The notes: a model not told the origin generated them from the sequence alone. A DNA stretch of 36,264 bases from Seison nebaliae (GCA_023231475.1 JALJEE010000608.1:1-36264), one strand, 5' to 3'; counted from the stretch's first letter, positions 1,084 through 34,337 are shown. Numbers and translations are program-made.

Positions 1084-2782
1084 TTAATCGTTGTTTAATA
1101 AACTATAATCAGATTTAGTGTCAGTATGGGCAATAGATCGATTAAAATCGAAATTTGCATGTTTTGAAGCCAAACTACCTAATGGCAGAATGGCAATATT
1201 TGTTACATTTTGGTTTTGTGGAGGGGAAGTTTTGGTAATCTGGGGGAGATTATTTGCCAAAGATTTATTATTTGGTTTCGTTTCGAGTTTTGGATTCAAC
1301 CTTAATGCTTCAATTGGCAGTACTCTCCTTCGTCGTTTTGGTAATTTCGATCTTGCTTTCATATGAGAATAATACATTGCAAAATTTGATACGATAACTG
1401 GAACAGGTAAGGCGATACACAATACACCTACTACTGCACATACACCTCCAACTAACATGCCTGCTGCTGTTTTTGGAACCATATCACCATATCCAACTGT
1501 GGTAATTGTAACGATAGCCCACCATAAACCGATTGGTATACTTTCGAAATTATTGTTTGGATTATATTCGCTTCTTTCCGCATAGTACATTAATGACGCA
1601 AATATTACAATAAAAATAGCACCGAAGAAGACTAATAATGTCAATTCTTTCATACTGGCGTGGAAAGTGTGTATGAGAATTTTTAAACCAGAAGAATGTC
1701 TGGTCAATTTCAACAATCGCATTATTCTTAATATGGAAATGAATTCGATCCATTCCTGTTTCGTTTGTTCCGTTAACTTTACTATATAATCTGTGTAAAA
1801 TGCAACGGTTGCCACTACATCCATGATGTTGATTGGTGACGTAATAAATTGCCATTTATTGGGCGCGGCAAGTAGACGTATAATAATTTCAAAAAAGAAC
1901 CAAGCATTGCATACAATTTCGATGTAGAGGAACACATCATGTGGAACACTGTTATTTTGAGCGATAGTCCATCCTATCCTTTGTTGCTCTTCCGAATAAT
2001 TTTTATTGTTCGATTTATCATATTCTGTCACATTAGTAATTGGAGATGGAATTTTAAAATATGTTACATTACTGATATTCGTGATACGTAAACTTGGATG
2101 AGTTTTAAGACAAAATGAGAATATAGATAATATAATAAATAAAACACTTATGATTGATATTGTCTGGACAAAAGAGAAAAATTAGAGAATTTTAAATTAA
2201 AAAATGAAAAAATCGATGAACTTTAGCAGTTTTCGATGACGATGGTTCCTCAAATAATTGCCATAATATTGGTTTATATCTTTTGTACCAAGGTAATTGA
2301 CCAGAAAGATATCGATTATCATCTTCCCAACCAAACTTTTTTGCAACATCTTCATCAGTTGGTTTCTCATAATCCAAGTCCATATCTTCCAAAACTGATA
2401 AGGTTTCCTGTGTGTTTCTGTGTTGTGTATAAGTCATCCAACAACATGGCTCGACTTGATTAGCGTCAAGGCCCCAAAACTCGAGTTCCTCTTCAAATAA
2501 TGGTCCACAAACATCAGTGGGGTAATGTAATTTTCCAGTTCGATAATAATTCAAGATCTAAAAAAGAATTAAAATCATTTGATTAAAGAAGTGACGAATA
2601 ACTTGCGCAAATACTCCAGGATGACGATCGAAGAAATATTCATTGAGAACCGGATCGAAATTAGCTAAGTTTTCTGTTAATCTGGAAAGTCTAGTGGCTG
2701 GTATTTTTTTAAGAGTAAGTTTGTAAGATTCATGTCGAATCCCTCCCACGTTGAGAACAACTCGATTATCGTTATCCGACAT
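1084..2782 (-). CDS. Shaw: Shaw/Kv3-family voltage-gated K+ channel, paralog 1 (about 531 aa; exons 2782-2603, 2557-2222, 2163-1084)
   Basis: T1 domain ([13 protein letters not shown]...[41 protein letters not shown]), S4 ([13 protein letters not shown]), pore TTVGYGD and S6 PVPVIVSNF. Introns 2602-2558 (GTTATT..TAG) and 2221-2164 (GTTCAT..CAG) restore the frame. Confidence 0.96.
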
Positions 2783-5700
2783 TAGTATGTGATTTGAAAT
2801 GAATGTCGATTGTTTTTATTTAATCTTTTATTTCGTTCACAAACATTGATTTGGATACACTTCCAGCAAAGTGTGTACTTTTTAGCAGTTAGGAAATATA
2901 ATTTGTATAGGATTTGGATGGGTAAAATGATATGAATAAAAAGAGGAACGGATTCGTTGAATAAGTTTTATAGATGAACCAAATAGATAATATTTGATTA
3001 ATATATTGGATGTTCGTTCAATAGTTTGAAAACATAATAGCGATGAAACAAAATGATGCGATAGATCATATTATTTAACTACATATTAATCTATTAAAAA
3101 AGCGGAGAAATTTATAATTGCTTCCAGGCATCAATATTGATTATAATTCAAAAAAATATTTTCATAATTTATTGGTCTGAAGATAATCGTCTATAAAAGA
3201 TAACTTTATGTTAATACTTCTCCCACAATAATAGTATAACAATTAGAACTAAACAATTTCTAATAACATATGGATGTAGTAATTGAAGGGAAGTTGATGA
3301 AGCCATAGTCGAAAACTTAATTGTTTGGATGGAATAAGAAGAATAGAATTAAGATCATCGTTGTCATAATCACGACGATTATAAATGAAATAAAACAATA
3401 ATTAATCATATTATCATGACACAAAACAAGTCGATATAGATAAGATGTACAATAAAAAAATGTTGGGAAAAGGAAAATTATATGATCATCATTAAACAAT
3501 ATGACTTAATATCAATGGAAATGATTTATGATAATCATTATTTTTATTAGCACTATATTCCAATTTTTATCTATAATTCTGTCGATATTAGCAGAAATAT
3601 TGTTTTGACAATATTTGTGAAAATAATTAAAAAGAAGAACAACTGTTACGAACTCCGACTTCTATTATTTAGTACTACAACCAGTAGTTACATCTAGTTC
3701 AGTCGATGACAAATTCTTATTCTTCAAAAGAACTACATAAATTTCATACACTGCATGGTGACGAAAGTAGAATTACTCATTCTTTTTGTTTATGTCTCAC
3801 AATCCTAGCGAAGTGGTAGGAAATGACATGATTACATTCTGTGTTTAAAGCGACACGAGATAAAATTTGGGTGCGCAAACGAAACTGTGCCCGAAAATTT
3901 TAACGAAATTATAAAAACTACCAAGAGCCATGACCAACTGACATACATTGCGTTCTACACATAACACCTAAATCATTTATGATACACCGTCATTCTCTCA
4001 TTCTTCACTACTAATCGCTTCATCATTTCTATCATTCTTCGGAAAACAATTTAATGGAAATTTCCAATTACAGCAATAAAATACGGGAATTTTCTATGAA
4101 GGGGAATGATTCTATGAAAAATTTTAATTCTTTAAAAATTCGTGTTCAATTTGTTCTTTTTTCATTCTTTCTATTCTCACTTTTTAATAAGTTTCGATGA
4201 TTTTAAGTTCTGAATGTCAATGCATTAATCAAATTTACATCACATGGAAATAACGAAAGTGCCAATGAATTAGCATTTCCAGTTGATGTTAATTAATTTC
4301 TTTTTGCATTAATTACTATTTTGGTAGTTACTAAGATCGAAAATAATAACAACTTACTTCTATGAAAATTTGTTTTTATTGGTAAGAATAATCAAATTGG
4401 AGTTGTTAGATGGAATAGTGAAACTATTAAACATTCACTTTTAAGTTTCTAATGAGCGAAGGTAACAACAGATTTTCCTCCACACTTTCGTAGCTACTTT
4501 ATGTCACATAATTTGATTAGTTTTTTTTTCTCATAATTTATGATATAACATCTATTTACTTTATGGTTATAGTTATTAATACATGATGTGCATGCACTTG
4601 CATCAATTGCTATATTAAATTGGCTCGTTGCTAACGAAACCACCTAATTATTCTATGTGTTCAAAAAATTTTTGACGGTAAGAAATTGACTAAAAATTAA
4701 GTGATGATGATGATCATATTCTTGGGAATAAGAGAAAGGTAATGAATTCTCCATTTCTTTCATAAATATAAAATACTCGAAATAAACCGGTTACATCACT
4801 TATCATATTAGTGTAACTAAAGACCTGAGATCAGTTATTAAATTTTAAACGAAATGTTTTTATTTCATTAAATTTTGTTATGTTTCATAAACAAACCAGA
4901 ATATACTTGTCGAAGGAATATGGAGATCGAATTATATGAAGTAAGAATTATGAAGGTTCTTAGGTATTGGGTGGCGATAAGTACATGTTTGCTAGTCGAG
5001 AATTACAAGTGGAAATTAAGAAATTTAATTAATTTTCAAGGGAATTAATTTCTGATAAGAATTTTGCCAAACGGCATGTAATATTGGTATTTCCTCAAAT
5101 ACCAATGGATGAACAACATTTTTTATTTCATCGACAAATGTGAAGATTAGTTATCGATTTTTTTCCTTTTCGAACTTAAAAGCTTGTTGGAATTATCGAT
5201 CACATTTCCAGTAGCTGTTTATCAAGTATATGAGAATTATGTCCGTATGATATTTCAAAGTTTATGGATGGCAAATTTCCTTTTCATCCTTCAGAATCGT
5301 CAAATTATTAGTGTACTAATAATGAAGAAAGAATTCTTCCCAATTTTATTGCAATAAATCGATAGTTACTTTTTCCATGTTTTCTTTGATTTTAATTGTC
5401 CGACTAATTCATTGCAGATTCAGATAAATATTGTTTCATCGATTTGTTTTAACACGGATTGAACTGGGAGAAATATACAACGAAACTCGGGACTTGAAAT
5501 TGCTGTAGAAGATCGAGGAATCTAAAATGTGTTGGATTATGGGAAATGGTAAATGTGCTTATTGATATGAATGCACATAAAATTCATGAGATGAAATGCA
5601 TAATACATTCCAATGAACTAAATGTTTATTTACCAGATTTTTGAATAATTTTTAATTCATAAAAACAACAATAAAAAATATTATTTGTTTGGAACATTGA

Positions 5701-8700
5701 CGTGTCGTCCGAGTTTGGCGGAAAATAATTCAGCAGGTATTTATACGAAGCTTAATAGTTTGTCTTCTTAATCAACTTTTCATTTCTTGGATGAAAAATT
5801 GAACTTAAATTCTCTAAGGTAATAAAAGGTCTACCGTGATGTTCCAATGTTATACCAAGTTAATGCAAATAATGTTGCCATGAATGTAACTTCATATTAT
5901 GCATTTTCAAAGAAGTTAGTTTTGTAAAGAATCTTTTACTATTATGCACCGAAGTGATGATGATGATCTCTTAGGTTATTTTTAAAGTTTGGAATTCAAA
6001 TATTTTCATTTATCTAAACTGTGAGTCTCATATTTTTATCTATATAATATCATTCTGGAAAACTGAAATTAGTTAATACTTTTACACAGTCGTTATCCAT
6101 TTCACTCACAATGGTCATTAGTCAGTCGTAGTGCATCTTTTTGAATATTAAGTCCCATAGAGCTTCGAAGACATTTTGTTAGATAACTCGAGATTGTGAA
6201 ATTGTCGTTAGATAATTTTAAGTTATTTGTCTAATAAAGTTTTTCTTCGAATGGAAAAAGGACAAAAGAATATTCACACTGAATGTTTAAAAATAGAATA
6301 TCATCTTTGTGCAATATAATAGTATAATTGTGTTAAGGAAGAAGTATTGCATTGAGAAAGTATTATTCAATATATGATGTCATGTTCTCAATTAAATATT
6401 GATCTCATTTGCATAAGATGTGCAGAAAGACAGATGTGTGCAAATGAAACATTCTTCCGGTTCGTCGAAAACTGCAGCATTTATTCTCTTTCAAAATTTA
6501 CATTAACTAAATACCAAATTAATTATGGTGTTACTTATTAACTTAATAATCAGAATGCAAGTAAACTTGAATAAAAAAACGAATAATTATAGAGTAATTC
6601 CTTTTACTTCTCCTTTCTCTTCTTCCAATAAAATTGAGTGAAAAGTAAAGAAAAAAAGAATGAACAATGTTATATAACAACACAAAATACACAATATTTT
6701 CTCTTCACTTGTACACTAGAATAAGTTTCTAGTTTTTTTGTACATTTCCCCTTTATCTAGCGAAGAAGTTGTTCTCGACTTCACTAGACTGGCAACTATA
6801 TTGACGACGAGAGAGTCAACTGGAAGTTATGTAAAAGAAATCTAATGAATAATATTATGAGGAAGATCGAAAAGAATAAGATACAAAGTATTAATATGTG
6901 CAGAATCCATGTACATCTTAAAATCAATACTCGACCCCTTACCAATATTTACATATACTGAATTAAGTGAGAGAAAGGTGTTCCAACTGGTAATGTTTAA
7001 AGAGGTACGGTCGATCACAATAGACGTATGGTTTCGATAAAGCTATATGGAATATTTTGATAAACTAATAGAATAAGAAATGATTGAGTAGCATATGTTG
7101 GGAATAGTATGTTAAGGATACACATTTATATATTAAGTCGACGTCGACCGTAGAGGCACTTGCATCGACAATCGAAAGAAATAGACAGATAGGAAAACTA
7201 TTATGGTTGAGACTGGCACCTATAGATATGATTGTAGGTTGTGAGTGTAAATGTGATTGGCTTCCCGAAATATGGAAGCATGTATATATGAAGAAATATT
7301 TATGTCTATTTTACACTCTGCCAATTCTATGCATCAGCAATTAATATCTCTATTTCTCCTGATGAATTTAACTTGGGTAATCATACAATAAATTTTATTT
7401 AGCATACATCCCTCCAAGATGACGAAATATGAAGCTTATAAATTATCGTCTTTTCTTTTCTTCCTTTCTTCTGCTTCACCTTTCCGTCTCATATAAGTCT
7501 TCTCAATGAAATATCAGAGGTTTCACCAAATCCTCTTATTTATTTCATCCATTTCACATTCAACACCAAATGTGAAGCTGTAAATTGTTTGATGAATATT
7601 AATTTCAGTCGGAATACTACGAATAACCATTTTAATCGAACGAAAACTTTCCTTCCTTTATCTTTTTATCCTTTACATCACAACGAATTTACTCCAATTA
7701 CTTAGAAACTTTATCAAATTTATTTCATTATGTCATCATTTCCAACGAGTAATCTATCTCTCACTCATTGACAAAATGGAAACTTCTTGAAACTATTTCT
7801 TGTATAATCTTCTTCTTCTTCTTCGTCTTCTTCTTCTTTTTGAGTTGTGAAAGGAGTTCCATCATTTCTCCAGGCACATTTGGTGGAGCAGATAAAACTT
7901 TTCGATTCAACAAGTTCTTTTATTGTTCTGCTTCCCATTTTTTCTGTCCCATCGACTTTCGTTTTGTCTTCTACAATTATTCTCCCATCCTTTATATTCC
8001 ATATAATGGAATTTATTCAATTGTATCTTCTTAGCAGTCTTGATCAATTATAGTTATCGATATTGATCGAATTTCTACTCATTTCGAATTTCAACATATT
8101 GTTCTTTTCCACTCGAGGAAATATGAATGAAACGAATAAATATTTATATTGATCGGACAATTTCATATTCTAGTTCAATACAAAAAAATAGAGAATCAAT
8201 AAGAAATGTATAATGCGAAATGTTCTCCTAAATTATAATATTAGCAGCACAGGAATATTGAAATTCCAAAGGAAGTGCGCATATAAATCAATAAGGAATT
8301 CGTTTTTCTTTTCCTACACAGAAATTGTCGTAATAATTTTATTGTGAAATATGTGATGCATAATAGAAGAGGAGAATAGTATATGATGGGAAAACGTACA
8401 AATTACCTGAAAAAGGAGAATTGTGAATATACAATCGAATAATATACCAAAGGGAAAAGATCATAAAGTTAAGATTGATTTTATTCAGAAGCAAACTAGG
8501 AACACTTCTCGCAGATTAATAATAATTGTTAGATTTATCGCATTATCGATAATCAGATGTCATATGTCATATAAATAAACAATTAATAAACTCGGTTGAA
8601 AGGAGTTTTTTTTATGGGAGAAAGTTGAAATAACAATAATTTAGCAGTTTTAAAAAGTGGAAATTACTTTTTCTCTTGTTATTCTTATCGATAACATAGC

Positions 8701-14700: not shown

Positions 14701-14813
14701 CGAATTTCATTCCTTGATTAATATTTCCCATTTATTGATTAGATAATGATTGTTTGTTAAGAATAATCTTATTTCAGCGGCATACTAAATAATGAGTCAT
14801 CCATCATTATTCG

Positions 14814-16738
14814 ATGGCATCGGATTCAGATAATCGTGTCATATTAAATGTCGGTGGCATCCGCCATGAAACTTACAAAGCAACATTAAAAAAGATACCA
14901 GCAACACGTTTATCAAAATTATCTGAGAATCTTGCTAATTATGATGCACTTCTAAACGAATATTTCTTTGACAGACATCCTGGTGTATTCGGTCAAGTTA
15001 ATAAAGAATTTATTGTAAATTATTTATTGAATAAACTTCTTGTTAGGTATTGAATTATTATCGTACAGGAAAATTACATTATCCGACTGATGTGTGTGGA
15101 CCGTTGTTCGAAGAAGAACTAGAATTTTGGGGCCTGGATGCAAATCAAGTTGAACCATGCTGTTGGATGACGTATACACAACACAGAAATACACAAGAAA
15201 CATTGACAGTGTTAGATCGACTCGATTTAGATTCTGAAAAACCAACCGAAGAAGAGATCGCAAAAAAATTTGGTTGGGAAGATGATCGTGATTATCTGAA
15301 TGGAACGATGCCATGGTACAAAACAATAAAACCTAAAATTTGGCAATTATTCGACGAACCGTCATCATCACAGGCGGCAAGAGTTTGTGTCTTCTTTTTA
15401 CAATTCTATTATTTGATTATTGAATATTTATTCTACTTACAGGTTGTTGCTGGTATCAGTGTTCTGTTCATTGTTGTATCAATCTTATCGTTCTGTTTGA
15501 AGACGCATCCAGATTTGCGAGTTCCTCAATTAACTAATCGTACATTCCTTATTGATGGCAATAATACCTGGTCGTGGAAGATCGAGAAAGACACAACAAA
15601 ACCTCATGCCGTTTTCCTTTATATTGAGAGCATATGTAATGTATGGTTTACATTCGAAATAATTATCCGATTTATTGTTGCTCCATGTAAATTAACATTT
15701 ATGAAATCACCAGTGAATATTATTGATTTTGTTGCAACATTATCATTTTATATTGATTTACTCGTGTCCCGATTACAAATGAATCAGGATAATGAATTAT
15801 TAGAATTCATCTCAATCATTCGAATTATGAGACTATTGAAATTAACGAGACATTCATCCGGTTTAAAAATTCTTATTCATACATTCAAAGCAAGTATGAA
15901 AGAATTGACGTTATTGGTCTTCTTCCTCGTTATTGGAATCGTCATATTCGCTTCCTTAATGTACTATGCGGAGAGGACACAAGTTAATGAGAAAAACAAT
16001 TTTACAAGTATTCCCGTTGGCCTATGGTGGGCCATCGTTACCATGACAACCGTTGGTTATGGTGACATGGTACCCAGAACTTATTTGGGAATGTTAGTCG
16101 GTGGTGTTTGCGCCGTTATAGGTGTGTTGTGTATTGCATTACCAGTACCGGTAATTGTCTCCAATTTCGCAATGTATTATTCTCACACACAAGCGAGAAG
16201 CAAGTTACCGAAAAAACGCCGTCGTGTCTTACCGGTAGAAGCGGTGCGCCCAAAAACTATTCCGACAACGACCATATCAAACAAAATGTCAAAATTTGGT
16301 GGGAATACGAACAATAGTGCGAATAATATGGGAGTTGCTGCATTACCTCTCAAGATGTCGAATGCGATGCACAGAACTCCAATGATAATGCCATCAAATA
16401 CAAGTGGAGGTGCACCTCCATCAATTCATACGAATTCAAAGAAACATAATATTAATAAGAATAATGACAATAAATTAGAGAGTAAACGAAACTCGAAATC
16501 CGAAGGAAATCGAACGACAACTGGATTAGCTTCGGGTCTCCTATGTAATCCAGCCGCCACTATTAGTAATAAGAACAGTCAAGTTAAAGGATCGCCATTA
16601 ACATCGACATTACATGTGGAAACTGATGTTCGTACGGATTTTAAGATGGGAAATGAAACAACAAGGAAATACTCGACCAAAACTTTCAAGAATAATGAGA
16701 AAACTAATTCGAATGAACATCTCCTGGTAAAAATGTAA
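14814..16738 (+). CDS. Shaw: Shaw/Kv3-family voltage-gated K+ channel, paralog 2 (about 604 aa; exons 14814-14996, 15047-15382, 15443-16738)
   Basis: Same T1, S1-S6, TMTTVGYGD pore and PVP motifs as paralog 1. Introns 14997-15046 (GTTAAT..TAG) and 15383-15442 (GTTTGT..CAG) fall at the same codon positions as in paralog 1. Confidence 0.97.
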
Positions 16739-16875
16739 TTCCAAATTTCCATGTGATAATTACAATAAAAAAAGTTTTCAAAAAAAAGTCGATGTCCATT
16801 GAAGAAAATCTGACTAAAAAGATAAAATAAATGTGTTGGAAACTTGATTAACATCATTGGCAACATCATCCGGTG

Positions 16876-16913: not shown

Positions 16914-17669
16914 TTGAATTTATGATAATATAAAAATTGATTCAAAAAGGTTTATTGATGTCAACAATGATTGATAATATGAATCTGGAGACATCTATTT
17001 CTCATAATTATTGCAATCTTGCCGATAATCTCGATAGTTCAATCAATAGAATTATTCATTTAGACTATCATTCTTCCTCGAATATACAAATTTCCAGTCA
17101 AATCAATATTCTCATCATTGTCAGAACCATCCAAAAAAATATATATATATTCATAATGCTGGTTGCGATATGGATGGATGGAATGCAAATCGAACTATTG
17201 TAAATGAATTCAAATCGTTTATTGTTTGAATTCTTCTTCTAAATATATTGTTTCTCATTCTCTATCTCTCTTTTCATTTTCCATTTGAAACCGATAAATC
17301 TTCATAATAATCTTTTTCAAACTTATTTCTCTATTTTCTTTTGAATTTCTGCTCTCTTTCTGGAAAAATAAAATCTTTAGATTCAAAAAATCATTTTCTA
17401 ACAACACAGGACACTCTTGACACTTTTAGAGAAATAATTCTTATTGAGATTATACGAAGGAAATACAGGTAGAAAGGGAAAGTTTCAAATCGATTGTTTA
17501 TTCGATTTATTTACATTTCCATCATTTCATGATCGCTGACCGTTTGGTAGTTGTGTGAAAAAAAAAATTAATTAGACAAGAAAAAAAAACATTCGATTAA
17601 ATTTTATTTTCAGTAAATAAATTTTAAATCATTCACTTCTCTTCTCAATGAAAATTAATTGATGAGAGA

Positions 17670-17985: not shown

Positions 17986-19540
17986 TCAAATTCTTCTCCG
18001 TTTCTTATTTGGATTGACAAATAAATCTTTATTTCCACCACCAAATCTTTTCGTCAGATTCTTCTCTAAACTCTTCTCGAATAATGGTTTCTCAATTTTT
18101 GTCGTATCTTCATTCGTCAAATGAGTATATTTAGTTTGACTTGCCTTACCAAAATTCTTCTTTTGCATTATTTGTGGCAATGTCGACTTGTCGAACAAAT
18201 CGTCCAATGTCGGTTCCATGGCATTTCGGTTAACAATCTCTTCTTCTTCATCCAGAAAGAAAGCACCACGATGATAATATTTTTGAAGGAACTTTATCTT
18301 TCCTTTCTTCTGAACATTTGTTCTCACTTTTTTAAAACCGATTCGATTCCGTTCTTCTTCTGTCATATCTCTCAATTCTTCTCGTTCTATTTTACTTCTT
18401 TCAATTTCCATCTCTTTCTCTCGTTCACGATTTATTCTCCCTAATTCACGTTCTCGCCATGCTGCTATTGATGCTTCATCATCTGAATCATCGTCCGTTA
18501 AAAAATCACATTGAACTTCAATTCCGTTTAATTTCAATGTTGTCTTCTCCGTCGTCAATTTTTCTTCTTCCTCCTTCTTAATTTTCACGACAATCGATCG
18601 CGTCTCCAACATTCGTGCTTTAATTCGTTGTTTCTCTTCTTTCTCCTTATTCTTCTTCTTCTCTTCTTCTATCTCCTTTTCCATCAATGTAATTCTTTCA
18701 CTCTTCTTAATGAAGACCGGTTTCATCTTTAAATGATTTGTTCCGTAAAAATGATTTGTAGAAGAATCTTCTTCTTCGTCTTCTTCTTCTTCTTCTTCAT
18801 CTTCGTCACTATCATCTTCTTCTTCAGATGATGATGATGATGATGATGACTCCACCAATTTTCCTTCTTCATCTGATTTATTTAATGTTAAATCTTTTGA
18901 ATTATTTTTCGATTCAATTAATTCTTTCCTTTGATTATCCATAACTTCCGAATTCAATTGTCGTATACGTGATTTCATCGGTTTAACTTTCACATTTCTA
19001 TTATCACTATCATTCTCATCCGTCTCATCCGTCTCATCTTCACTATTATCATCGTTATCAGAACTGGATTCTGATGATACATCTTCATCGTCATCATCCT
19101 CCACAATTTGTGGTTGTACACGTCGTCGTAGTAATCGTTGTGCACGAGGATCATTCAATTCAGCTTCTTTTACATTATCTAGATCAATTTCTTTCTCTTC
19201 TTCAACGTTCAAACGACGACGGACGTCGACAGAATCAAATGTCGAAATATAATTTTGATTTAATCCTTCAAATCTCTTCTTTGGAATCGATTTCTTTTCA
19301 TTATTCTCATAATCAATCTTCTTCAAACTTGTTCCTTTCTTCTCTTCTCCATCACCAATCGATTCAGGACCTCTATACCATCAGAATTATAAATGAGTGA
19401 ATAAATTATATTTAATTATAAAGAAAAAAAGTAATTAACTTTCCTGGAAAATATCGTTTTATTCTCACTTTCTTCATAGTGAATCCACCCTTGGGATTCG
19501 GCACCTGAATCGCACCAGCTGTTGATAATTGTGAACTCAT
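17986..19540 (-). CDS. MFAP1: Microfibrillar-associated protein 1 (spliceosomal B-complex factor, Spp381 family), about 495 aa; exons 19540-19440 and 19372-17986
   Basis: N-terminal STAGAIQVPNPKG..MKKVRIKRYFPGK and C-terminal AWRERELGRI..KGKIKFLQKYYHRGAFF..PTLDDLFDKSTLPQIMQKKNFG..QTKYTHLTNEDTT match MFAP1. Intron 19439-19373 (GTTAAT..TAG). Confidence 0.95.
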
Positions 19541-20630: not shown

Positions 20631-23600
20631 ATGATGGCAACAGATCAGCAAGTGAAATGCAACGGTCCTTCTCAAACTAAAAGATTACGAGAAGAAGTTT
20701 CTAATTTATCGACACCTGTACAGCATCATACAAGTTTCATTTGTTATTTTATTAAAAAACTTTTTTAATTTCATTTATTTGGAAAGATGAAGTGATTGAA
20801 AATGGACAATATCATCCTCAGAACAATAGTTCATTTATTGCTCCTCCCTCTAACTATCAAGTACCTAGTCAATTATATCTGCAACTCGTTCAACAACAAC
20901 ATCCACAACAATTACATCCAAACTTTCATCCAATGAATTCGAATGATGTTCGAATAATGCAACAACAACAGCAACCAGGTACGACACCGGCTAATACACC
21001 TCATCAATTATCGAATAATTTTAATCAATCATCTCAATCATCATCAACACAGCAATCACAACAACCGATACCGGTACAACGACCACCATCTCGAATCCAT
21101 CAACCATTATCAAATCCACCGATTGACAATAATTCCAATGGTCCTCTATTGACATCCACACCAATTGCCAATATGAATAGTAACAATTCTGTGAAAAGCA
21201 ACAACAACAACGTGAACAATACGAATAGTGTAATGATGAATAATAATAATGGTCGACCGGCAAATACGGTAATGACAATGAATCAAGCACGATTATCTGA
21301 TCGTTTTCAAGAAGCGTTTTCACTCGTTCGACAATTGGTCCAGATAATTCATTCTCAGAAATGTTTATTAATTGACCGATCGAAATCAGTGAATCATTGC
21401 AATCAAGCATTTTGTCCACAGCTCAAAGATCTTCTCATTCACATGGAACAATGTAAACAGAGAACGAATTGTAATCGTAATCATTGTACATCTGTCAGAA
21501 GACTATTGTTACATTGGAGGACATGTAATGGACGTTGTGATGTTTGTGCTGTTCTAATGACACGTTCACACGAACACATATTAGCTCAACCTTATCAGCC
21601 GATTAATTATGGAAATAATATGAATAATATGACACCGCCACTCAGTGCACAACAACAGCAAATGAATGCCACAAATAACATCCATCAACGAACTACGAAA
21701 GACAGAACGCCTTCGATTCCCGCATTCGTTAAACGGAAAGACATTACTGAAATTAATGATAAGAAGTGGCATGCACATGTCAATATTGAAGCGCGAACTC
21801 ATTTGGTGAATAAGATCATTTCAACAATCTTCCCAGATAATTGTCAAATAATACCAAATGATGCACGACTACCAAAGATCATCAATTATGCCAAGGCTGT
21901 TGAGCATCGTGTCTTTTCGGAAGAAGGTGATCGTAATAATTATTTCCGGAGATTAGCCGAAACCATTTTCCGAATTAAACAAGCCGTTGTGGAGAAGAAG
22001 TCGAGTATCAAAAATGTTGATGATGTAAGGAAAGTGATTATTAATGATAATCCACCAAATCATCCAATACCAAATAATGATATAGATCAAAAAATGAAAA
22101 TTATCGATAATACCATACCATTATCTACTACCATCATTACATCTGTCTCACAAATCACTACCACATCTACATCTATCATTAATTCTAATTGTGATACTTC
22201 AGTCACCATCTCCACATCAGTCACAACCGTCTCCTCTACATCGATGGAGTTGACACCAGCCAAAACCACCACCGTTTCCAAGACAATAACGGGAATGAAG
22301 GAATTGACGAAGAAGATTGCTGATTTGAGTTTTAAGAAGAAAATTTTCTTGAAAGAAGTTATCATAAAACATTTCTCACCAATAATCGACCGTTTATTCA
22401 ACATGCCCGAATCTGATGAATTTCGAGAGCCTGTCAATTGGCAAGATTTGAAAATTCCTGATTATCCGAAAATTATAAAAAATCCTATGGATTTGGGAAC
22501 GATTCGGAAACGCATCTTCGATGGATATTATGAAACGCCAGATAAAGTGGTGGATGATTTATGGTTAACTTTCCACAATGCTTGGATGTTCAATCGAAAA
22601 GGTCAGAGAGTTTACAAGAAATGTTCGCGATTGGCTGAAGAATTCGAAATGATAATTGATGAACCATTAAAGAATTTAGGTTATTGCTGTGGTCGTGATC
22701 ATCAATTCATGCCACAAGTATTGATGTGTTATGGACAAAATATGTCTTGTTCAATACCGAAAGATGGAACATATTATTTATGGAAGAATAATCATGTTAA
22801 TCAAGAGAATTTGGCTAATGAGAATTATATGTTCTGTGCCAAATGTTTCGAAGCAATTCATTCACCTGTCATCGCTTTAGGTGATGATCTTTCACAAGCA
22901 TTAGTAGAAGTGAATAAAGACGAATTCATAAAGAAGACGAATGATCAAATGGAAAAAGAAGAATTTGTTTTTTGTAAAATTTGTGGACGACGTAGTCATC
23001 GAATTTGTGTTCTTCATCTCGAACAGATCGAAGGCTTCTACATTTGTAAGAGTTGTGTTGATGACAGACAAGTTAAACGGCAACGGAATGAATTCCGTGC
23101 TAGAGGTTTAACTCATTTATTATAATAAATTATTTAAAGATTTGAATAAATTATTTTAAGATTTACCAAAAACCGAATTGAGTTCATTATTAGAAAGAAA
23201 AGTGAACGAGGAAGCAAATGCCATTGAAGGACGTGTCATTATTCGTGTTCTATCGTCTGTTGACAAACATGTTGAAGTTAATTTGATTAGAAAAATTTAT
23301 TTTCTTTCATTCTTCTTCGAAAGGTTCGTCCATTAATGCGACAACAATTCCCACAATTTCCTTTAAAATTTCCTTATCGTGCGAAAGCGATCTTCGCTTT
23401 TCAGGAACATGACAATGTCGATATTGTTTTTTTCGCCTTATTAGTTCAAGAATATGGAAGTGAATGTCCCGAACCAAATTCTCGGTTATATTTCATTCGA
23501 TTTGTTTGCTCCTAATGATTATTTCCAATTCTCTTAGACGAGTATATGTCTCATATTTGGATTCGGTTCATTATTTTCGAAGGAAACAATATCGGACGAG

Positions 23601-25134
23601 TTTGTATCATAAAATTCTCATTCATTATTTGGAACATGTAAAATCATTGGGATTTCGATATGCTCATATTTGGGCTTGTCCTCCATCAGAAGGTGACGAT
23701 TATATTTTCCATTCGCATCCACCTGAACAGAAAACGCCAAAACAAAAACGATTATGTGAATGGTATATTACCATGTGTCTGATGGCACAATTACAAGGAG
23801 CGATAGTTTGGAAGAAGGACATCTCTCAATATTTGGAAGACAAAGAAAATCTCGCCACTAAAATGCCATATTTCGAAGGAGATTTCTGGCCGTCCACTTT
23901 AGAAGAATGTATCAAAGAAGTGGAGGATGAAAAGGAACGATTGAAGAAAGAGATGGATGAAGGTAATAATGGTTTTGATGATGATAATTCGCCCAACATG
24001 ATGAATTCGATGAATGATCAAAAGAAATTCGGGAGAAGTTTATCGAAGAGTAAAAAGAATAAAAAGAATTCATTGTCGAAGAATAGTCGTTCTGGTGGGA
24101 AGAAGCGACAAGCAGTTGTTCAATGTGATCTTAATTTGAAAGTGAAGAGTGTAGTGGAGAAACATGCTAGTGTCTTCTTTGTTATTTGTCTTATCGATCC
24201 GCCAAGTGCACAAAATCTCGGTCCCATTCGTGATCCTGATCCGACGATGCATTGTGACTTAATGGATGGAAGAGATGTTTTCTTATCGACTTGTCGAGAG
24301 AAGCATTTGGAATTCTCATCGTTGAGACGTACGAAATTTTCGACGATGTCATTATTGCAAATCATTGCTATTCAAAATAATCATGATAGTGCAAACTTCA
24401 ATTGTAACGAATGTAAAATTCAAATGAAAGATCGATTCCACTGTACCAAATGTGACGATTTCGATTTGTGTACTTTCTGCCATCAATATGTGAAGCATGA
24501 ACACAAATTGGAATTCTGTTCAATTCAAGCAAGTACGAAATCGTTGGCAGACAAGAATGAAGTACTTCATATGGCACAAGAAGCGATCGTCCATGTTGCA
24601 CGATGTAAAAATGCAAATTGTCAGAGACATCTCTGTAGTCAAATCAAGAAGATTATGCGACATAGAGAAGTGTGTAAGCGGAGTGAAGCATGTCATGCTT
24701 GTCGTCGTCTGATGTCGATAGTGAAGACGCATGCTGAGAATTGTCCATTGGAAGGAGATTCTTGTCCAGTTTTGAAATGTGCCGAACAAAAGGCGAAATT
24801 ACGTCGTACTCGAGCGGCGGATCAAGCCATTACTAGACGTCGAATGAAAGGAATGAATCAGTTAATGAAAGGTACATCGAGTCATAATAATAGTACGAGT
24901 ACAACGGCTAGTACACCGTCAGCAAGAAATTCACCGTCATATGGTGGAAATGGAAATGATTCGAAATATGGAACGAAAGAATCAGCAGAAGTTGTACATC
25001 AACAAATGGGGAAACAAAATCATTCGATGAAAAATAATCAGAGAAATAATAATGATATAAATAATAATAATAATAAAGGTGGAGGAACATTTATGAGAGA
25101 TAATAATAATAATGGCCGAAGTAAAGATATGAGA

Positions 25135-25174
<40 letters not shown>

Positions 25175-26040
25175 TTAAAAACAATAATAATAATAATAAT
25201 AATAATAAGCAATCATTAACTTCTTCATCATCTTGTAATAAACCAAATTTTATACAACATCCCAACAATAACAATAATAATAATAATAATAATAATATGA
25301 TATATAATAATCGTCCAATAAATAATAATTCTAATGGAATGATGGATGTTAGATCTCCTGGAATGAGTAATCATTTAAATCCAAATAATACTCATAATAT
25401 TCCAAATAATAACAACAATAATGGTAATCATATGAATGTCAATTTGAGTAATCAGATTGCGAATGGAAATATGAATTATTCTTCTATCAAAACACAACAA
25501 CAACCAAAATTCTCTCCGAATTTTTCTAATCAAGCTTATTATGCATCAAATCGAATGCCTCAACAGCAACAACAACAGCAGCAACAGCAACTGCATTCTC
25601 AGCAACAACCTCAACCACCACCACAACCATACGGAATATATCACCAGAAACCGAATTTTTCATCACCTTTTATAGGCCATCAGAATCCGATGAATTATGG
25701 GAACATGGGACAAATGCATGGGCAAAATCCATCGAGAATGATGGCTCCCAACAGTCATATGCAGGATAATCATCCCATCAGACCACAACAAATGGTGAAG
25801 CAGGAGCCGGGAATGTATGGCGTTCAACAAATGCCAAATCATCCTCATCATCCACAACCACCTCAAAACTATCCGACCCATCCACAAATGGTGAATAATG
25901 GTAATTCGATGATGATGAATGGGAATGCTTATAATTCTGGAATTTATATGAATAACACTAATAGTATGGTGAACAATGCAAATATGAAAACTAAAGTCAT
26001 CAATAACAACAACAATAATAACAACATGAATAACAAATAA
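20631..26040 (+). CDS. CREBBP: CREB-binding protein / p300 histone acetyltransferase, about 1733 aa; exons 20631-20733, 20787-23105, 23161-23276, 23324-23484, 23538-26040
   Basis: TAZ1, KIX (KKWHAHV..RTHLVNKI), bromodomain (IPDYPKIIKNPMDL..NAWMFNRK), RING/PHD, HAT (YLDSVHYF, HIWACPPSEGDDYIFH, RLCEWY, PYFEGDFWP), ZZ and TAZ2 occur in canonical order. Four GTT..AG introns (20734-20786, 23106-23160, 23277-23323, 23485-23537) give one continuous frame. Confidence 0.97.
25138..25296 (+). repeat. (AAT)n microsatellite runs encoding poly-Asn in the CBP C-terminal tail
   Basis: Twelve uninterrupted AAT at 25138-25173 plus further AAT/AAC runs, all in frame with CBP. Confidence 0.9.
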
Positions 26041-26065
26041 ATCAATTCAGTCATTCTTATTACTT

Positions 26066-26108
26066 TACACACATACACACATACACACACAAAACAAACA
26101 AACAACAA
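26066..26108. repeat. Interrupted (AC)n followed by (AAAC)n microsatellite in the CBP 3' region
   Basis: acacacatacacacatacacacacaaaacaaacaaac read directly from the sequence. Confidence 0.7.
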
Positions 26109-27016: not shown

Positions 27017-29655
27017 TCAATCAATAGGAGCAAATTCTCGACGATTTAGTTCGTATAACGTCTTCATTTCTTGCATCAGATCCTTTTCTTCCAACTCCAA
27101 TAATCGATTACCGTCGAACCACGATTTCAGCATTCCATCTGCCGATTCCTCATAATCAACAATTGAAACCAAATCGTTTTCTTCTATTTTTGTGTTGGCT
27201 TGAACGATCAATTTCCTTGACAATCGTTTTGCAATCACAATCTTTCTCCATTCCATGAACTTTTCGTTGACCGTTGAATATTTCTTGTACATAGAAATTC
27301 CTTCCTTCTTATCACCGATACTCTTGTACGTTTGTAATTTGACGAGGAAATCACTAATAGCCTTAAATCCTTTAGAGAGAATATCAGGAAGATTCATTCG
27401 AACACGAAGATCCGATTGATCTTCCTCGCCCTTTATCTCAACAATCTCTACTGCACCAGCTTCTAAAAGTACTTGTAAGATAACATATCTCGCTTGCATA
27501 TGAGCCTGTCGCCATCGTTGAGTTTCAGGAGTATAGTACTCCAATCCACAAAGACCAGCACGACACATACTCAACCAATTGTTAAAAATCAAATGATCCA
27601 TTTTCTCTGGAGCGATACCGAATAATCTGTTGGAGAAAATTTGAATAGAATTTGAATGACATTAAAATGAAACTTCAAAATATCTTTGTTCACACAAAGA
27701 TATAATCCCACACATTCTGCTCGACATTCTTCATAAGATGATGAAACTTCTCCGAACATTCCATCGTATCCTTCGCCTGAATTATAATAAGTAGTCACTT
27801 TCTCCTTTGTTAATGGATTAATTGTCGATTCTGCATCGAAATTAAATGTTCCATTCTTTAACTACGACAAAAACAATCAACAAATAAAAAATTTAATGTG
27901 TGAACTTTCCGGAATAATTTTCCCGTTCCATGACCCAACAATTCATGGAGACCCACCTGCACATCGAACGCTGGTATTCGATAGTCGGAAAATAATTCTT
28001 TCTCGTTCTCATCGATAAAAGTGATTCGATCTAAATCTTTTTCTTTCAACGAAGCTCCAATGACATTTCCGAGAGAAACATTTTTAAATCCTTCATTCTG
28101 ACGAACTTCATCGTCTGAAATCATCACAAATTATTAAGGAACAAATAATAAGAATGAGAGAATAACAATTGGGAATATTGATTCCTGCAGGAACACCACT
28201 ACCACCGAATGCCAATATATCTAACGACGTGAAATCGGGTTTAAGGAATCGATCTTTCTCATACTCCTTTGACCATGGCAATGTCGATATATATTTCTCC
28301 GCATTTTTTACTAAATCTCCAAATACTTTCGACCGTTCAGCATTCACCATTGAAACAAATCCTTCGAATTCTCCTCGTTGACCAGTCGGGTCGCGATATG
28401 TTTCAATAAATCCGATATAACTAATGAAAATTCCATTAAATCAATGAATATAATAAACACGAATAAATTATTTAACCTTTCTACTGACGGTCGAGTATCT
28501 AAAATCCAATTACGACTACCATCAATGTGGGCGACTAATGAACCGGTTCGGAACGATTCAATATATTTCTCTAACATTTCCTTTTGATAATCATTGGCAG
28601 AATTTTTCTAACAATTTCAAATTACATACGAAACATTTCATAATTCAAATATGGAACTTGTGCCTTTTCCAAAAAATCTGCACAACGTTTCATTAAAATA
28701 CAGTGATCGCCACGTACTATACGGAATTTCCTTTCTTTGAATTGTATCGGTGTAAATAAATCAAATCCATCAATATTTGCTATATATTCAACATAGGATA
28801 ATTATAGAAATTATTTAAATGCTCCAAAACTTTTTGTACTTCCTTGAGAGGCAATAATAATCTTTAATTCACCAGATGATCTATCTTTTGCTAATCTCGT
28901 ATTATACGGTTCAATGTGCTGTAATTGATGATAAATATAATTAATGAATTTGAGTACATGTAAATATTAAACTCTTTCACTCATAAACACTTTAGCTGCG
29001 TCTGCATCTTCTTCCGTGATATTGGAAGTCAAATAAGTAGTCGTGCCTTTACCATCATATCCTAATTGACGTTTAATCGGTTCTAACGAGAAAATGTCGT
29101 CCACAACCTCTTTTAATTCATTTTCTTCAAAAAGAACAACATCACGAAATATCTCCGTATAAAGTTTAAGATATTTTTCCTTTATCAAAATAATTTGAAG
29201 AAAAGAAAAATAATAATTTCAAAAACTTTTGGAATATTTGGAACAATCTTCGTATCGCCAAAACCTTTATAGTTCCCCATATAACATAAGACACCCGAAT
29301 AATAGAAGATTAATGCTTGGTATTCCTCTTCGGTCAATACTTCGCAACATTTCTTCTTCATCTCTTCCATTGACGACACCGATCGAAAAGTGGAGAACAT
29401 CAGCAAGAAAATGGCTGGTGATTCCACCGACGTCTACAGAGAAAAAAGAAAAGTTTTGAGAAAAGAAATTCATAAAAGAAATTGTCGAACTTGATACAAA
29501 GTGATCAGACTTCCATACCATGTCGCCTTCGCCATATAATGAGCATATTGTTTCTGCTTATTCGTCAAACGTTCAAATGCTTGTCTACAACTCAAAAAAG
29601 TGAATTTTGTATCTTTTCCCACTTCGAACAACGACATCTCATCCTCCTTATTCAT
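27017..29655 (-). CDS. DPP3: Dipeptidyl peptidase III (peptidase M49), about 726 aa, 10 exons (29655-29491, 29433-29227, 29179-28973, 28918-28831, 28779-28658, 28607-28477, 28420-28167, 28114-27906, 27861-27674, 27626-27017)
   Basis: Catalytic HELLGH and EECRAE motifs, plus [49 protein letters not shown] and [10 protein letters not shown]. Nine GTT..AG introns give a continuous frame. The start ATG is uncertain (29655 or 29637). Confidence 0.96.
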
Positions 29656-30326
29656 TATTTTATTAATTTCCAAATTGGAAAACTTTCTAAATTAAATTTT
29701 CAATGAATGTCGGAAAGAAAACGTGAATGGGAAAAATTGGTAGAAGACAAATAAACTGAAACGTTCCTAGATGATGTTTCACAGATGAGCCGGAACGAAG
29801 AAAGAGTTTTGAGAAATTTCTTATTAACATTGCAAACACAAAGCTTCTTTGTGAATTGTCCTAACATAAGAAAAATTTCAAATCATATTCCAATAACTAA
29901 CAATGTAAAATGAAATAAGCGAATTTTACATATTAGAAATTACTTTAAGAATTCTCAAATCAACTTATAACTGTTAGCAGTCAATTTTTAAGTACCTCAT
30001 ATTTTCTGGGTTTTGTCAGAATTATTATTATCGTTGATTAATTTAATTTTTCCTTGATTGTGAAATTGATTTTACCGAAAATAATTGATCTCGATCTATA
30101 GTTGATGGTTTTTTCAGTACTATATTCTTCTAATTCTTTTTAATTCGAAATACTGTGCAATATCTATTCAAATAAGTAATTGGCAGGTGAATAATAAAAT
30201 AAAGTTAAAAAAACTTACGATTGATGTTGGAAGATGATTTATTTTTTTCGGCAAGTTTAAATTTTATGTTTAAACTCAACTTGTGAATCTACCATCCATC
30301 GAAACTTCATTTCACTTTTCCATAGT

Positions 30327-32105
30327 TAGGTGTCCCGTGAATTGAGACACATTTTTCTCCACAACAGAGACAATATTGTTTCCTTTCTTTATTTCTTTTT
30401 TTTTTTTGCTGTAGATGTAAATCCCTATAGATAAATAAAAATTAAAAATTCACGACATTGGTCGTTGGTTATTAGTTCACGGCATCTTGCGATATGATTT
30501 TTGAGATTGTCGGGAAACAAGTATACGAAGGAGAATTCATCTATCTTGCATTGTACAACCGGGTAGGCTTCGGAAGAGTGTAATACGAACAGAAAAAGGA
30601 CAATGGAGACGTAAGAGGTAACAAATCGTTAAAAGAAGGAATAGGAAATTCTGAAGCATCCATCTTCTCTAGTAAGGAAAGATACTGGTTTATCAACAAA
30701 ATCGGAAACGGAAGAAGATCGACAATGGAGAACATAAATGCTCTTGAAAAGGAGCACTTACAACCTAATAAACTTCGAAATTCGAAGTTCGAATGTATCG
30801 ATTATATGCTCGATCTAAAGCGTACATTGATTTCATTGAAAAGGATATAGCTGCCTGTAGGTCGTAGAAATCGCAGCAAAAAGTATGAAACAACTTCATT
30901 TTTAGAGAAATCGGAAAGTATTTACAACGATGATTAAGTGAAAAGCTCTAATGAACTTGCATCTAATATGATCGACAGTTGCAGAACTCTTTTTCTTACA
31001 GTCTAAATAACAACCAAGAGATTTGCTGTAATTTCATTTATATTCATTAATCTCTTAATATTTCTGGAGGATCGATAATAGGAATATCTCTTTCATTCAG
31101 TTTAATATTCGTCAACAATTTAGATTTCGAATTATTACATTTTATGCCACATCTCACAAGTAGGGCTGGGGGAATCCATGATCCTTAAATGAAAAGGATA
31201 AGTAGGAGCCACAGTCATACTTAGGATCGATCCAACACGTCGTTTGAAGTCGATCCTTCTCAACTTGAAATATTTTATTGAAAATAACTTTAAATTTTAT
31301 CTAAACTGTGTATAATTTTCGACATTAATCTAATATTATAGTATGAAGTTATACATGTTAAAGGTTTATTTTTTAAGGGCTACAAGATGGTTTGATTTGT
31401 TTTGCATTTAAATTCATATTTTTTCTGACATTTCAGTAATTTTGTAAAAAAAATTACTTTTCTAAAATATGATTCTATTTTTTCTAAATTGTACTGAATT
31501 ATCAGAAAAACTTGTACACTGTACAAGTTATCCTATTTTCTTATTAATTTGCACCGAGGGGATTTGATTTTATAAATAAAAAAAAAAAAAAATCAGAGAA
31601 ATGAGTTGGAGAATATAAATTTGAAAATTTTCATGAGAAATGAAACTTGAATTAAATGTAATTACATTTGTAAATGTAGAACTCTGAACTTGGTGGCTGA
31701 ACGTTCAGAAATAAATACACTTTCAACAAAAAATTGGCTATTTTTCAAATTTTTTCACAAATAATTTATTTCTTATTAAAGATCGCTATTTATTAGATTA
31801 CACGTATCTAAAAGGACGATCGTTGGTTTAAAGAAAACCAAATTGAATATATGGATTGGCCCGCTAATAGTTCTGATTTAAATGTGATAGAGGAAATTTG
31901 GAGATCGTTGGCACGTTCGGTATATGAAGAAATGGTACCATTCGAGAGTGTGGAACCACTGAAAAGGAAAATTCAAAATAGTTGGAAAAAATTACCAGTT
32001 GAATTAATTCAAAAACTTGCTTCATCTTTTCCGAAACGAATGTCTTATGTTCTACAGGTACACGGTGATTTCGTCTCCCAAGAATTCTTTAATGTTTCAA
32101 ATTAA
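30327..32105 (+). mobile_element. Degenerate Tc1/mariner-superfamily DNA transposon relic (extent uncertain)
   Basis: Transposase C-terminus at 31801-32105. TIR-like TAGGTGTCCCGTGAATTGAGACAC at 30327 and stop-interrupted basic fragments near 30500-30850 may belong to the same element. I found no matching right TIR. Confidence 0.5.
31801..32105 (+). pseudogene. Tc1-like DDE transposase C-terminal fragment
   Basis: WFKENQIEYMDWPANSSDLNVIEEIW matches the Tc1 WPxxSPDLNPIEN(L/V)W motif. It is followed by the typical L..KI..W..LP...IQKL..SFPKR...V....G tail. A frameshift lies between HVSKRT and WFKEN, and the N-terminal part of the DDE domain is missing. Confidence 0.88.
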
Positions 32106-32484
32106 AAGGATGTTGAATAAGAGGTCGTGCTGGTTTAGTTTAATTCTAATGTATATTTATAATGATTATACAATCATCAATTTGAGATGAGTGAAAATAT
32201 GAAAAACAGAAATTAATTTATTTGAATTTTCGGAAGGTCTTTGTCGAGTTAATTCGTATTCCATCTTCTCTGAATCTTCTTGTGGCTAATACCATTTAAA
32301 TTAGGTTAAGTTTTATTCAGTTTACTTCACTTAAGTTATTGATTAATTTTAAATTTATAAAGAACTTATAAAATTTATGTAAATGGTTGGAAATAGTTAT
32401 GAACGAACGGAGTTTGGCACAAAAGAATGTTAAACTAACAATAACAATAGAAAAGAAACAGAATAGAATTCAGTTCGTTAGTGG

Positions 32485-34337
32485 TCAAAAATCAGAATAT
32501 GGATTTACTATTGCAGATTTAGTACGACTTCGAGTATTATAAGACTTTTTTATGGTTTCTATAGTAAATTTAAGAGTTATCTTGGTCAAACATAAAATAT
32601 AAAATAACTTTTTTTGGTTAATTTGTCGGTGGTGTGTTGTGTGGAAGATTTTGAATTATTATTCAATTCTTCAATACTAAACAAAGAAGACTCGTTTTCA
32701 TTCATTCTTTCTCTTATACTTTCCATCAGAGTTCGACTTTTATTGTGCGATATTAAAGTAGAACATTGTTCTGTGTTACTATTCTCTTCATCTAATAGTT
32801 TGAGATTGACATTCATAAATCTCTCAATACTCGTCATCAACACAATTAAATCTTTATCTTTAATTCTTGTGTTCATCTTCATCCATTGAACGAATCCAAT
32901 TCGAGAATTATCTATTCTCACCAATAATTCTAAAATATCAGAAAATTCCAAAATATTCTTTTTCTGTTAAAATGCCAATTATGAATTTTGTCTTGTTAAA
33001 TTTAACTTTTAAATCACACGTCACAAGTCTATTAATTCCTTCAATCTGATTTATTTTCGGATTATCTTCTATATTACAATCACTTAAATTCACTTTCTTC
33101 TTCTCCGACTTTGTTATTGAAGTTTTCGAAATTATTCTAGGACTTTTAGTTCGTAGAATGTCTGGAGGAATTATCCTAACAGTTTCTTCATCTACTAAAG
33201 TTTTAGTTATTGATGTTTCCATTGGCAATTCATCATTTATAGAATCCATTTGATTTATTCTTCTTATCTTTATCGAATCTCCTCGACAAGATATTTTACT
33301 ATTAACATTCTTTAACCTTTTAATAATGACATTTGCCGGTTTTCTGGTATTATTCATTTTTGTAACTGTTGAAGGTTTATAATATGATGGATTGAGTGAT
33401 TCCTATAAAGTATTTTATGAAAATAAAAAATGTCTAATTTTAACTGTTAATTTGGATGTATTATCTAATTCCGAATTATTTTCCATATTTAATTCATTCT
33501 TATAATTTTTCATTGATTTCAAATGAAAAGATGTTTCATTCTTCGTTCGATCGTTCAATAATTCTGTAGATGAATTTAATTTCCGCTTATTTTCTTTGCG
33601 CAATTCCATATCTTTCAATTCTGGATTAATGGTTCGCAGACGAAAAGTTGAAAGTGAAATTTCTTCAGATATCTTCAAAAATTTATTGAAACTTCAAAAA
33701 AATAACAAGAAAACTTCATTTTCATGACATTGACATATTCCGGATAAGGTTTCCGACGAGGACTCATCACATGAACATAATTCTTCATCAGATTCCTTTA
33801 TTTTGAATTGTAAATAAAAATCTTCTTATTAAATGTTCTTAAATTAACTTTAGATTTGGATGTATCAATATCTGACATTTGATCACTATTTATCGTGGAA
33901 TCTTCACTACTTTCTTCTTCCTCTGTAAATCTCATTTTTTTCGAATATATTTCATCATCATCTTCTGACGATTCTTCTAATTTATGTTTGAGGTTTTTCT
34001 TAATTTGATTTGATATATTCGATTTGATAATACTACCATCATCTTCTTTCTTACCTACCTCAACTTCACCTAATTCAGATGGACATACCACTGGTAACCG
34101 ATGTTCTACTCCCTCATCATCAGAAATGATGAGAATTCCAGTAGTTTCCTCGTCATTCAATTTAACATTCAATCCATTTGTCATTCGCAATTCGTAAATT
34201 TCTTCGATTCCATTTTTATTGTCCAATTTAAAGACGACATTTCTTCTGTCTAACCCATTTAGGTTACAGAAAACGTTTTCTCCACTTCCATCATCCCCTG
34301 CACCACGACCATCACCTTCTTCAATATTCAACATCAT
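32485..34337 (-). CDS. Hypothetical orphan protein, about 540 aa, 6 exons (34337-33849, 33795-33715, 33672-33445, 33402-33007, 32963-32609, 32558-32485)
   Basis: Four collinear minus-strand ORFs plus two short exons join into one stop-free frame using five 42-53 nt GTT..AG introns (33848-33796, 33714-33673, 33444-33403, 33006-32964, 32608-32559). The protein is charged and S/E/K/N-rich, with no family recognised. Confidence 0.75.

Follow-up and report, generated by a model that had tools for sequence, protein, structure and literature searches.

Introns beginning with GTT in the animal Seison nebaliae: evidence for a derived 5' splice-site code

Entamoeba introns carry GUUUGU(U) at the 5' splice site (donor), together with a U1 small nuclear RNA (snRNA) that has co-evolved to read them (ACAAAC); in the passages of that preprint drawn on here, the only lineages said to have a U1 altered to match are Entamoeba, Mastigamoeba and, with caveats, Physarum (bioRxiv 10.1101/2022.06.08.495308). 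The canonical 5' end of U1 is AUACUUACCUG (PMC4856993 Table 2), and some atypical human 5' splice sites are read by U1 shifted by +1 (Roca and Krainer 2009, as cited in PMC4856993 and PMC9311317). Donors have also been divided into an AG//GU class favoured by U5 and a //GURAG class favoured by U6 (PMC9803359, PMC11732430). Here we analyse 36,264 nucleotides of DNA (30.7% GC) from Seison nebaliae (GCA_023231475.1 JALJEE010000608.1:1-36264), hereafter the window, in which every intron that could be located begins with GTT. Seisonidea live epizoically and belong to Rotifera/Syndermata (PMC8351084).

The window contains two Shaw/Kv3 paralogues, MFAP1, CBP/p300, DPP3 and one orphan gene; the NCBI Seison nebaliae proteins SNEBB_002531 (DPP3) and SNEBB_002528 (Shaw) were recovered when the DPP3 and Shaw exons served as queries. 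Introns were fixed principally from Trinity transcripts aligned with GMAP, as listed in Additional file 2 of PMC8351084. At least 13 transcript rows among the matches listed have coordinates fitting the window. Seven distinct gapped alignments, with two DPP3 rows joined over a 56-nt gap, gave at least 21 distinct gaps, and every equivalent sliding placement of each gap was enumerated on both strands. Eighteen of the 21 listed gaps, all of 42-70 nt, allow exactly one GT-AG placement and, among the transcript rows listed, all 18 read GTT...AG. The other three lie in the multi-copy orphan gene, measure 6, 9 and 12 nt, cannot be placed with GT-AG ends and were taken for indels. Trinity built the transcripts from reads first mapped with STAR, a genome-guided route that may favour GT-AG ends but no particular base at +3. 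The introns fixed in this way are as follows, a slash marking the exon boundary.

2558..2602, minus strand: Shaw1 intron 1, CAA/GTTATT...TAG, 45 nt
17360..17402, minus strand: intron downstream of MFAP1, probably non-coding or in the 3' untranslated region, GTT/GTTAGA...CAG, 43 nt
19373..19439, minus strand: MFAP1 intron, AAA/GTTAAT...TAG, 67 nt
29756 GTTTAT, 29490 GTTCGA, 29226 GTTTTT, 28972 GTTTAA, 28830 GTTTTG, minus strand: DPP3 donors 1-5
28657 GTTCCA, 28476 GTTAAA, 28166 GTTATT, 27905 GTTCAC, 27673 GTTTCA, minus strand: DPP3 donors 6-10
33848 GTTAAT, 33714 GTTTTC, 33444 GTTAAA, 33006 GTTAAA, 32608 GTTATT, minus strand: orphan-gene donors

All ten DPP3 introns (44-70 nt) are transcript gaps that agree with the NCBI model, and all five orphan-gene introns (42-53 nt) are transcript gaps. 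Sixteen of the 18 (Shaw1 intron 1, MFAP1, nine in DPP3 and five in the orphan gene) had been listed in a first-pass annotation of this DNA. The two absent from it, at 29756-29687 (GTTTAT) and 17402-17360 (GTTAGA), are both GTT and amount to an out-of-sample test.

Six further junctions without a transcript gap, along with one RNA-fixed control, were scored against 10 non-Seison homologues over all stop-free GT/GC-AG placements in intervals chosen around each junction. The best-scoring placement was GTT in seven of seven cases, from 3-10 candidates each, and a spliced aligner with no preference at +3 recovered all six, each with at least two references. The homology-fixed introns are listed below with one candidate that was left uncounted.

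2164..2221, minus strand: Shaw1 intron 2, AAA/GTTCAT...CAG, 58 nt; best of 3
14997..15046, plus strand: Shaw2 intron 1, CAA/GTTAAT...TAG, 50 nt; best of 5; in the NCBI model
15383..15442, plus strand: Shaw2 intron 2, AGA/GTTTGT...CAG, 60 nt, in frame; best of 6; in the NCBI model
23106..23160, plus strand: CBP intron, GAG/GTTTAA...AAG, 55 nt; best of 8; spliced aligner
23277..23323, plus strand: CBP intron, GAA/GTTAAT...AAG, 47 nt; best of 10; spliced aligner
23485..23537, plus strand: CBP intron, TCG/GTTATA...TAG, 53 nt; best of 5; spliced aligner
20734..20786, plus strand: CBP candidate intron 1, GTTTCA, plausible, donor not fixed

A transcript alignment stops exactly at 2222, the edge of Shaw1 intron 2, with 12 nt unaligned. 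The CBP candidate has alternative donors in the same phase (worked out by hand) at 20743, also GTT, and at 20665, GTC. Thus, where the first-pass annotation had described 23 donors, all GTT, 22 stand with the hexamers it gave, 16 through transcripts and six through homology, and the CBP donor at 20734 is plausible but not fixed. Two extra aligner introns in DPP3 were contradicted by transcripts, and four in open CBP frames, each called with a single reference, were rejected as gap artefacts. Contigs from three public DNA runs reproduce 14.5-30.5 kb of the window with 0-1 differences per long piece; they are DNA-like, without splice joints. The donors that they cover are therefore not assembly errors.

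All 24 located introns (18 RNA-fixed, 6 homology-fixed) therefore begin with GTT, and the consensus lies near AA/GTTAA. T occupies +3 in 24 of 24, a purine in none, and GURAG is absent (0/24), which upholds the earlier claim that the GTRAGT consensus has been lost. An invariant T at +3 had also been reported correctly, with +4 to +6 as degenerate; the latter needs refining, as A is weakly enriched at +4 and +5 (12/24 each, p=0.03). The full counts are A12 T8 C4 at +4, A12 T7 G3 C2 at +5 and T11 A10 C2 G1 at +6, so that +5 G is rare as described, although it occurs three times in the 24 introns counted here rather than twice in 23. A shift on the exon side from -1 G to A had been missed: -1 is A19 G3 T2, and -2 is A in 17/24. 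As the exon side has changed too, the donor signal is sharper than first described.

T follows 39% of GT sites in the window and makes up 52% of intron interiors. The chance of drawing GTT 24 times is 0.39^24 = 1.5e-10 on the former frequency and 1.5e-7 on the latter; for the 18 RNA-fixed introns alone it is 7e-6. If introns are independent, the exact 95% lower bound on the GTT share is 0.86. On the exon side, 19 of 23 coding donors have A at -1 where codon-position frequencies predict 8.3 (reached in 0 of 200,000 simulations), and 17 have A at -2 against 8.7 (p=0.0004). Phase-0 donors after Lys, Gln or Glu use the A-ending codon in 11/11 (p=0.037). Positions -3 to -1 hold 2.0 A on average, against 0.95 in decoys, and the 3' exon begins with A in 14/24 (p=0.02). 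Acceptors show nothing unusual (TAG 12, CAG 7, AAG 5); intron 3' ends are T-rich, and a YTRAY-like motif, counted with no control run, lies at scattered positions in 13/24.

Controls were drawn from 80 metagenome loci fetched with a Shaw profile, a set of one gene family with many shared intron positions that lacked acanthocephalans and named bdelloids. Among 79 aligner intron calls, 51 in 31 loci were identical in both references with at least four of eight identical residues per flank, and the 48 unique introns among these were used for counts. Their +3 position is A28 G10 T7 C3, a purine in 38/48 (Fisher versus Seison 3e-13), with -1 G in 39/48 (2e-8) and +5 G in 24/48 (0.002); all six control GTT donors are preceded by CAG. 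In loci below 40% GC the donor is GTA in 14/14, which bears out the earlier contention that AT-richness is no explanation. Three loci (L004, L005 and L032; 27-33% GC, introns 49-64 nt) group with Brachionus calyciflorus (FastTree support 0.993), their rotifer identity being inferred from the tree. They give GTA in 11/11 and GTT in 0/11, over four orthologous positions that are not independent. The comparison with related taxa that the first-pass annotation had proposed thus finds AT-rich, short-intron relatives without the trait. One other animal Shaw locus, L078 (match 289-1160), whose long branch falls close to the Syndermata clade though weakly supported (0.705), has two short introns (44 and 48 nt), both CAG/GTT with +5 G.

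The two Shaw intron positions, aa60 for intron 1 and aa172 for intron 2, both phase 0, also occur in control animal loci, where their donors are mostly GTA/GTG/GTC. At aa172 the Brachionus-clade loci read AAA/GTA, and Seison reads AAA/GTT and AGA/GTT. As both positions are common to other animals, these are ancestral introns converted in place. An introner origin, which predicts novel positions, was rejected on the same comparison, made for Shaw only. The RNA-fixed junctions, the insufficiency of AT-richness, the 0/11 in Brachionus-grouping loci and the failure of canonical U1 to discriminate these donors (below) support the derived donor code first proposed for the window, and we regard that code as very probably real and genome-wide.

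Two explanations would do away with a changed code. GTT might reflect intron origin, through mass recent gain by an introner element or an AT-biased process, with recognition unchanged; the uniform intron lengths (42-70 nt here, median 50 elsewhere) would suit this. It is nevertheless extremely improbable, since the aa60 and aa172 positions are shared with animals using other donors, no interior sequence is common to the introns by eye, and AT bias is rejected by the 14/14 GTA in low-GC controls and by a probability near 1e-7 under T bias alone. Alternatively, the genome might have an ordinary donor mix, with a raised GTT share by local or small-sample effect: a single contig was sampled, the transcripts are genome-guided and one in-frame segment of Shaw1 that starts GTA may be an intron. 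This too is very unlikely, as six genes of five unrelated families and one non-coding intron concur, and the lower bound given above holds if introns are independent. The spliceosome, moreover, acts in trans, and aligners impose GT-AG but nothing at +3.

Canonical U1 complementarity is largely absent from Seison donors, with a +3 purine in 0/24, +5 G in 3/24 and -1 G in 3/24. Duplex energy with canonical U1 is -1.8 kcal/mol, against -1.83 for decoy GTs, -6.64 for control animals and -4.56 for low-GC controls. In a fixed register, the area under the curve (AUC) for separating donors from decoy GTs with wild-type U1 is 0.52 in Seison, 0.90 in other animals and 0.82 in Brachionus-clade loci. Canonical U1 pairing thus gives no discrimination of Seison donors from decoys. 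MA/GUUAA resembles MAG/GUAA moved by one base. In scans of U1 variants, U6A+C9U performs best among double changes in the normal register (AUC 0.82), and C8A among single changes with free duplex folding against all GT decoys (AUC 0.71 versus 0.475 for wild type).

Our preferred explanation, in our judgement an even call, is that these donors are read by the major spliceosome with a U1 5' arm that has co-evolved to pair with A/GUU. We infer that such an arm would carry AACU where other animals have UACCU, either through U6A plus C9U in the normal register or through C8A in the +1 register, both of which would give AACU. U5 loop 1 would pair with an exon end rich in A, most U6 ACAGA pairing at +5/+6 would have been abandoned, and the remaining specificity might come from intron definition, by short length (42-70 nt) and a G-poor, T-rich interior. 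The shift of -1 from G to A points more to U1 and U5 than to U6, and A-rich exon ends on both sides fit a donor selection that leans more heavily on U5 loop 1, its compensating arm (PMC9803359, PMC11732430). The positions read by U6 are nearly without signal: +5 G is found in 3/24, and T at +4 (8/24) and at +6 (11/24) does not exceed background.

Several points weigh against a derived code or against a rewritten U1 arm. The sample is one contig, and the genome-wide claim is an extrapolation from it. A possible exception lies in Shaw1 at 2087-2025, an in-frame, stop-free 63-nt stretch starting GTA that is an intron according to two of three references; it falls in the variable-length S1-S2 loop, where the spliced aligner made two extra calls including this one, and none of the transcript rows listed covers it. 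The A at -1 is partly an AT effect: low-GC controls have G there in only 7/14, and AAA already precedes the aa172 intron in Brachionus-clade loci. The U1 scans were fitted to 24 donors and raise the AUC only to 0.7-0.85, which makes them leads only; against GTT-only decoys C8A ranks fifth, with U2 variants scoring higher. Mismatches are usually tolerated in U1 pairing, so that an invariant +3 U could equally well reflect proofreading at a later stage. In addition, a standard U1 is retained in most of the lineages whose donors are atypical (yeasts, Giardia, Trichomonas, Thecamonas, Mamiellales), according to the passages cited above from bioRxiv 10.1101/2022.06.08.495308.

The code may instead be real while U1 pairing is irrelevant, U1 having been lost or being unchanged and marginal. 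Donor choice would then rest on the pairing of U5 loop 1 to A-rich exon ends and on intron length, and +3 U would be demanded by a U6 G44-U(+3) wobble or by a protein pocket (PRPF8, SNRNP27K, U1C). The excess of A at exon ends (2.0 versus 0.95) and at the start of the 3' exon (14/24) is as U5-type pairing predicts, and the invariant +3 resembles a catalytic-stage check. We know of no loss of U1 in an intron-rich animal, and with no signal at the other positions read by U6, its helix would be only 2 bp. U5 and U6 are described as having compensatory roles, with U6 G44 contacting +3, and Cyanidioschyzon splices without U1 (PMC9803359, PMC11732430); some 35% of the metazoan BUSCO set is missing from Seison nebaliae (PMC8351084). 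On balance this explanation is doubtful, if far from negligible. A less probable one is that an unchanged U1 binds every donor in a +1 shifted register, pairing -1A with U10, +1G with C9 and +3U with A7, with +2U opposite C8 and +4A/+5A at the two pseudouridines, after which U5 and U6 set the cleavage site. The enriched bases -1A, +3U, +4A and +5A (19, 24, 12 and 12 of 24) are exactly its positions; shifting raises the wild-type AUC from 0.52 to 0.72 in Seison and lowers it from 0.90 to 0.49 in other animals, and pairs average 5.1 versus 4.1 in GTT decoys (p=5e-5). In human cells, rare sites are known to use this register (PMC4856993). However, the stabilising G-C pairs with U1 C4 and G11 are missing (+6 G 1/24, -2 C 3/24), free duplex energy is no better than in decoys, A at -2 (17/24) is left unexplained, and Brachionus-clade controls also reach 0.66.

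Gene models and tRNA genes of the window are as follows.

1084..2782, minus strand: Shaw/Kv3 channel paralogue 1 (Shaw1), 531-residue model, 2 introns
14814..16738, plus strand: Shaw/Kv3 paralogue 2 (Shaw2), NCBI SNEBB_002528, 604 residues
17986..19540, minus strand: MFAP1, PF06991 (E 1.7e-56), 495-residue model
27017..29830, minus strand: DPP3, PF03571, NCBI SNEBB_002531, 761 residues, ten introns
32324..34430, minus strand: orphan gene, about 540 residues, five introns
819-902 and 36189-36261: tRNA-Ser(CGA) and tRNA-Val(AAC) genes

Shaw1 and Shaw2 are divergently oriented, lie 12 kb apart and have both intron positions in common; the tree places them side by side (support 0.986), which suggests a duplication in the Seison lineage. 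Rfam K_chan_RES matches both, probably via coding conservation. Rfam searches at gathering and E<=1 thresholds found no snRNA genes in the window. The Pfam domain of MFAP1, a spliceosomal B-complex protein, is essentially complete (profile 9-215 of 215). The C-terminal region of CBP (24900-26040) is of low complexity and very rich in Asn and Gln. One transcript isoform has the first DPP3 intron (29687-29756) spliced out and the other keeps it; the N-terminal extension of the NCBI model depends on this intron. The DPP3 intron at 28421-28476 (AAG/GTTAAA) has the sole RNA-fixed donor with -1 G and is the sole one of the 18 RNA-fixed gaps that GMAP labelled intron rather than deletion. The deletion label was given to 17/18 gaps here and to 40/47 short gaps (median length 50) on 10 other contigs (Fisher p=0.43), a comparison that would point to weak donors across the genome only if GMAP labels gaps by a probability rule, and that has no control and was not used as evidence.

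The four exon open reading frames of the orphan gene have no Pfam match, and its first exon has no match in the ESM Atlas. The gene is transcribed and spliced, and its transcripts differ from one another by 6, 9 and 12-nt gaps; as it lies at 2-5 times single-copy depth, it probably represents a small family. A high-copy repeat region at 30028-32900, where read depth reaches about 50 times single-copy, includes a fragment of a DDE_3 transposase at 31812-32102 that falls short of the Pfam cut-off (E 5e-5).

Full-text literature searches, with most subscription journals outside their coverage, found no description of GTT-dominated donors in Seison or another animal, and no paper that treats Seison together with the spliceosome. 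PMC8351084 discusses intron span, and nothing on splice signals was found in the portions covered; a term search of PMC10639083 gave no mention of Seison, the passage of PMC3464624 on bdelloid tubulin introns has no donor table, and the row examined in the supplement to the lamin paper PMC10125929 holds no Seison intron sequence. Lineage-specific transformation of donors is a known phenomenon, of which Seison is apparently the first case in an animal. We are somewhat inclined to go further and to see here the first animal with a wholesale rewritten donor code, in which nearly all major-class introns, ancestral ones included, would have been converted in place to A/GUU, and the U1 arm rewritten, re-registered or abandoned. 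Few RNA codes in animals are as conserved as the U1 5' arm and the GTRAG donor, and known donor rewrites come from protists and fungi that are mostly intron-poor. An intron-dense animal converting ancestral donors in place would be a direct test of whether splice signals evolve together with snRNAs or through the loss of introns that fit badly, and of whether donor identity is set by U1 or by the U5/U6 hand-over. Gene-prediction programs trained on GTRAG donors would be expected to mis-score the Seison genome.

Set against known systems, Seison shares with the canonical animal U2-type MAG/GTRAGT its GT-AG ends, ancestral intron positions and an apparently pyrimidine-rich 3' end, but differs sharply from the controls at +3 (purine 0/24 versus 38/48), -1 (G 3/24 versus 39/48) and +5 (G 3/24 versus 24/48). 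U12-type introns resemble it only in having a non-GTRAG donor; the U12 donor, RTATCCTT, occurs in 0/24, and this class was rejected. A strong exon-side and weak U6-side signal recalls the U5-favoured donors, although the Seison exon end is AA rather than the AG of the AG//GU class, +3 is a fixed U and the U6-favoured class is absent (0/24 GURAG). Human sites read by shifted U1 share -1 A, +3 U, +4 A and +5 A with Seison; they are rare exceptions with +6 G and -2 C, whereas in Seison this reading would be the rule, with +6 G in 1/24 and -2 C in 3/24. The closest precedent is Entamoeba, which likewise has U2-type GT-AG introns, AT-rich and short, with a near-invariant +3 U in place of the purine. 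Entamoeba is intron-poor and has a strict +4 to +7 (88-90% GUUUGU) with good U6 ACAGA pairing, and it is known from donors and U1 together. Seison, known from donors, is an animal with intron-dense genes (10 introns in DPP3), in which +4 to +6 are degenerate (the Entamoeba-type +4 U, +5 G, +6 U, as GTTTGT, occurs in 1/24), +5 G has been lost and -1 has shifted to A.

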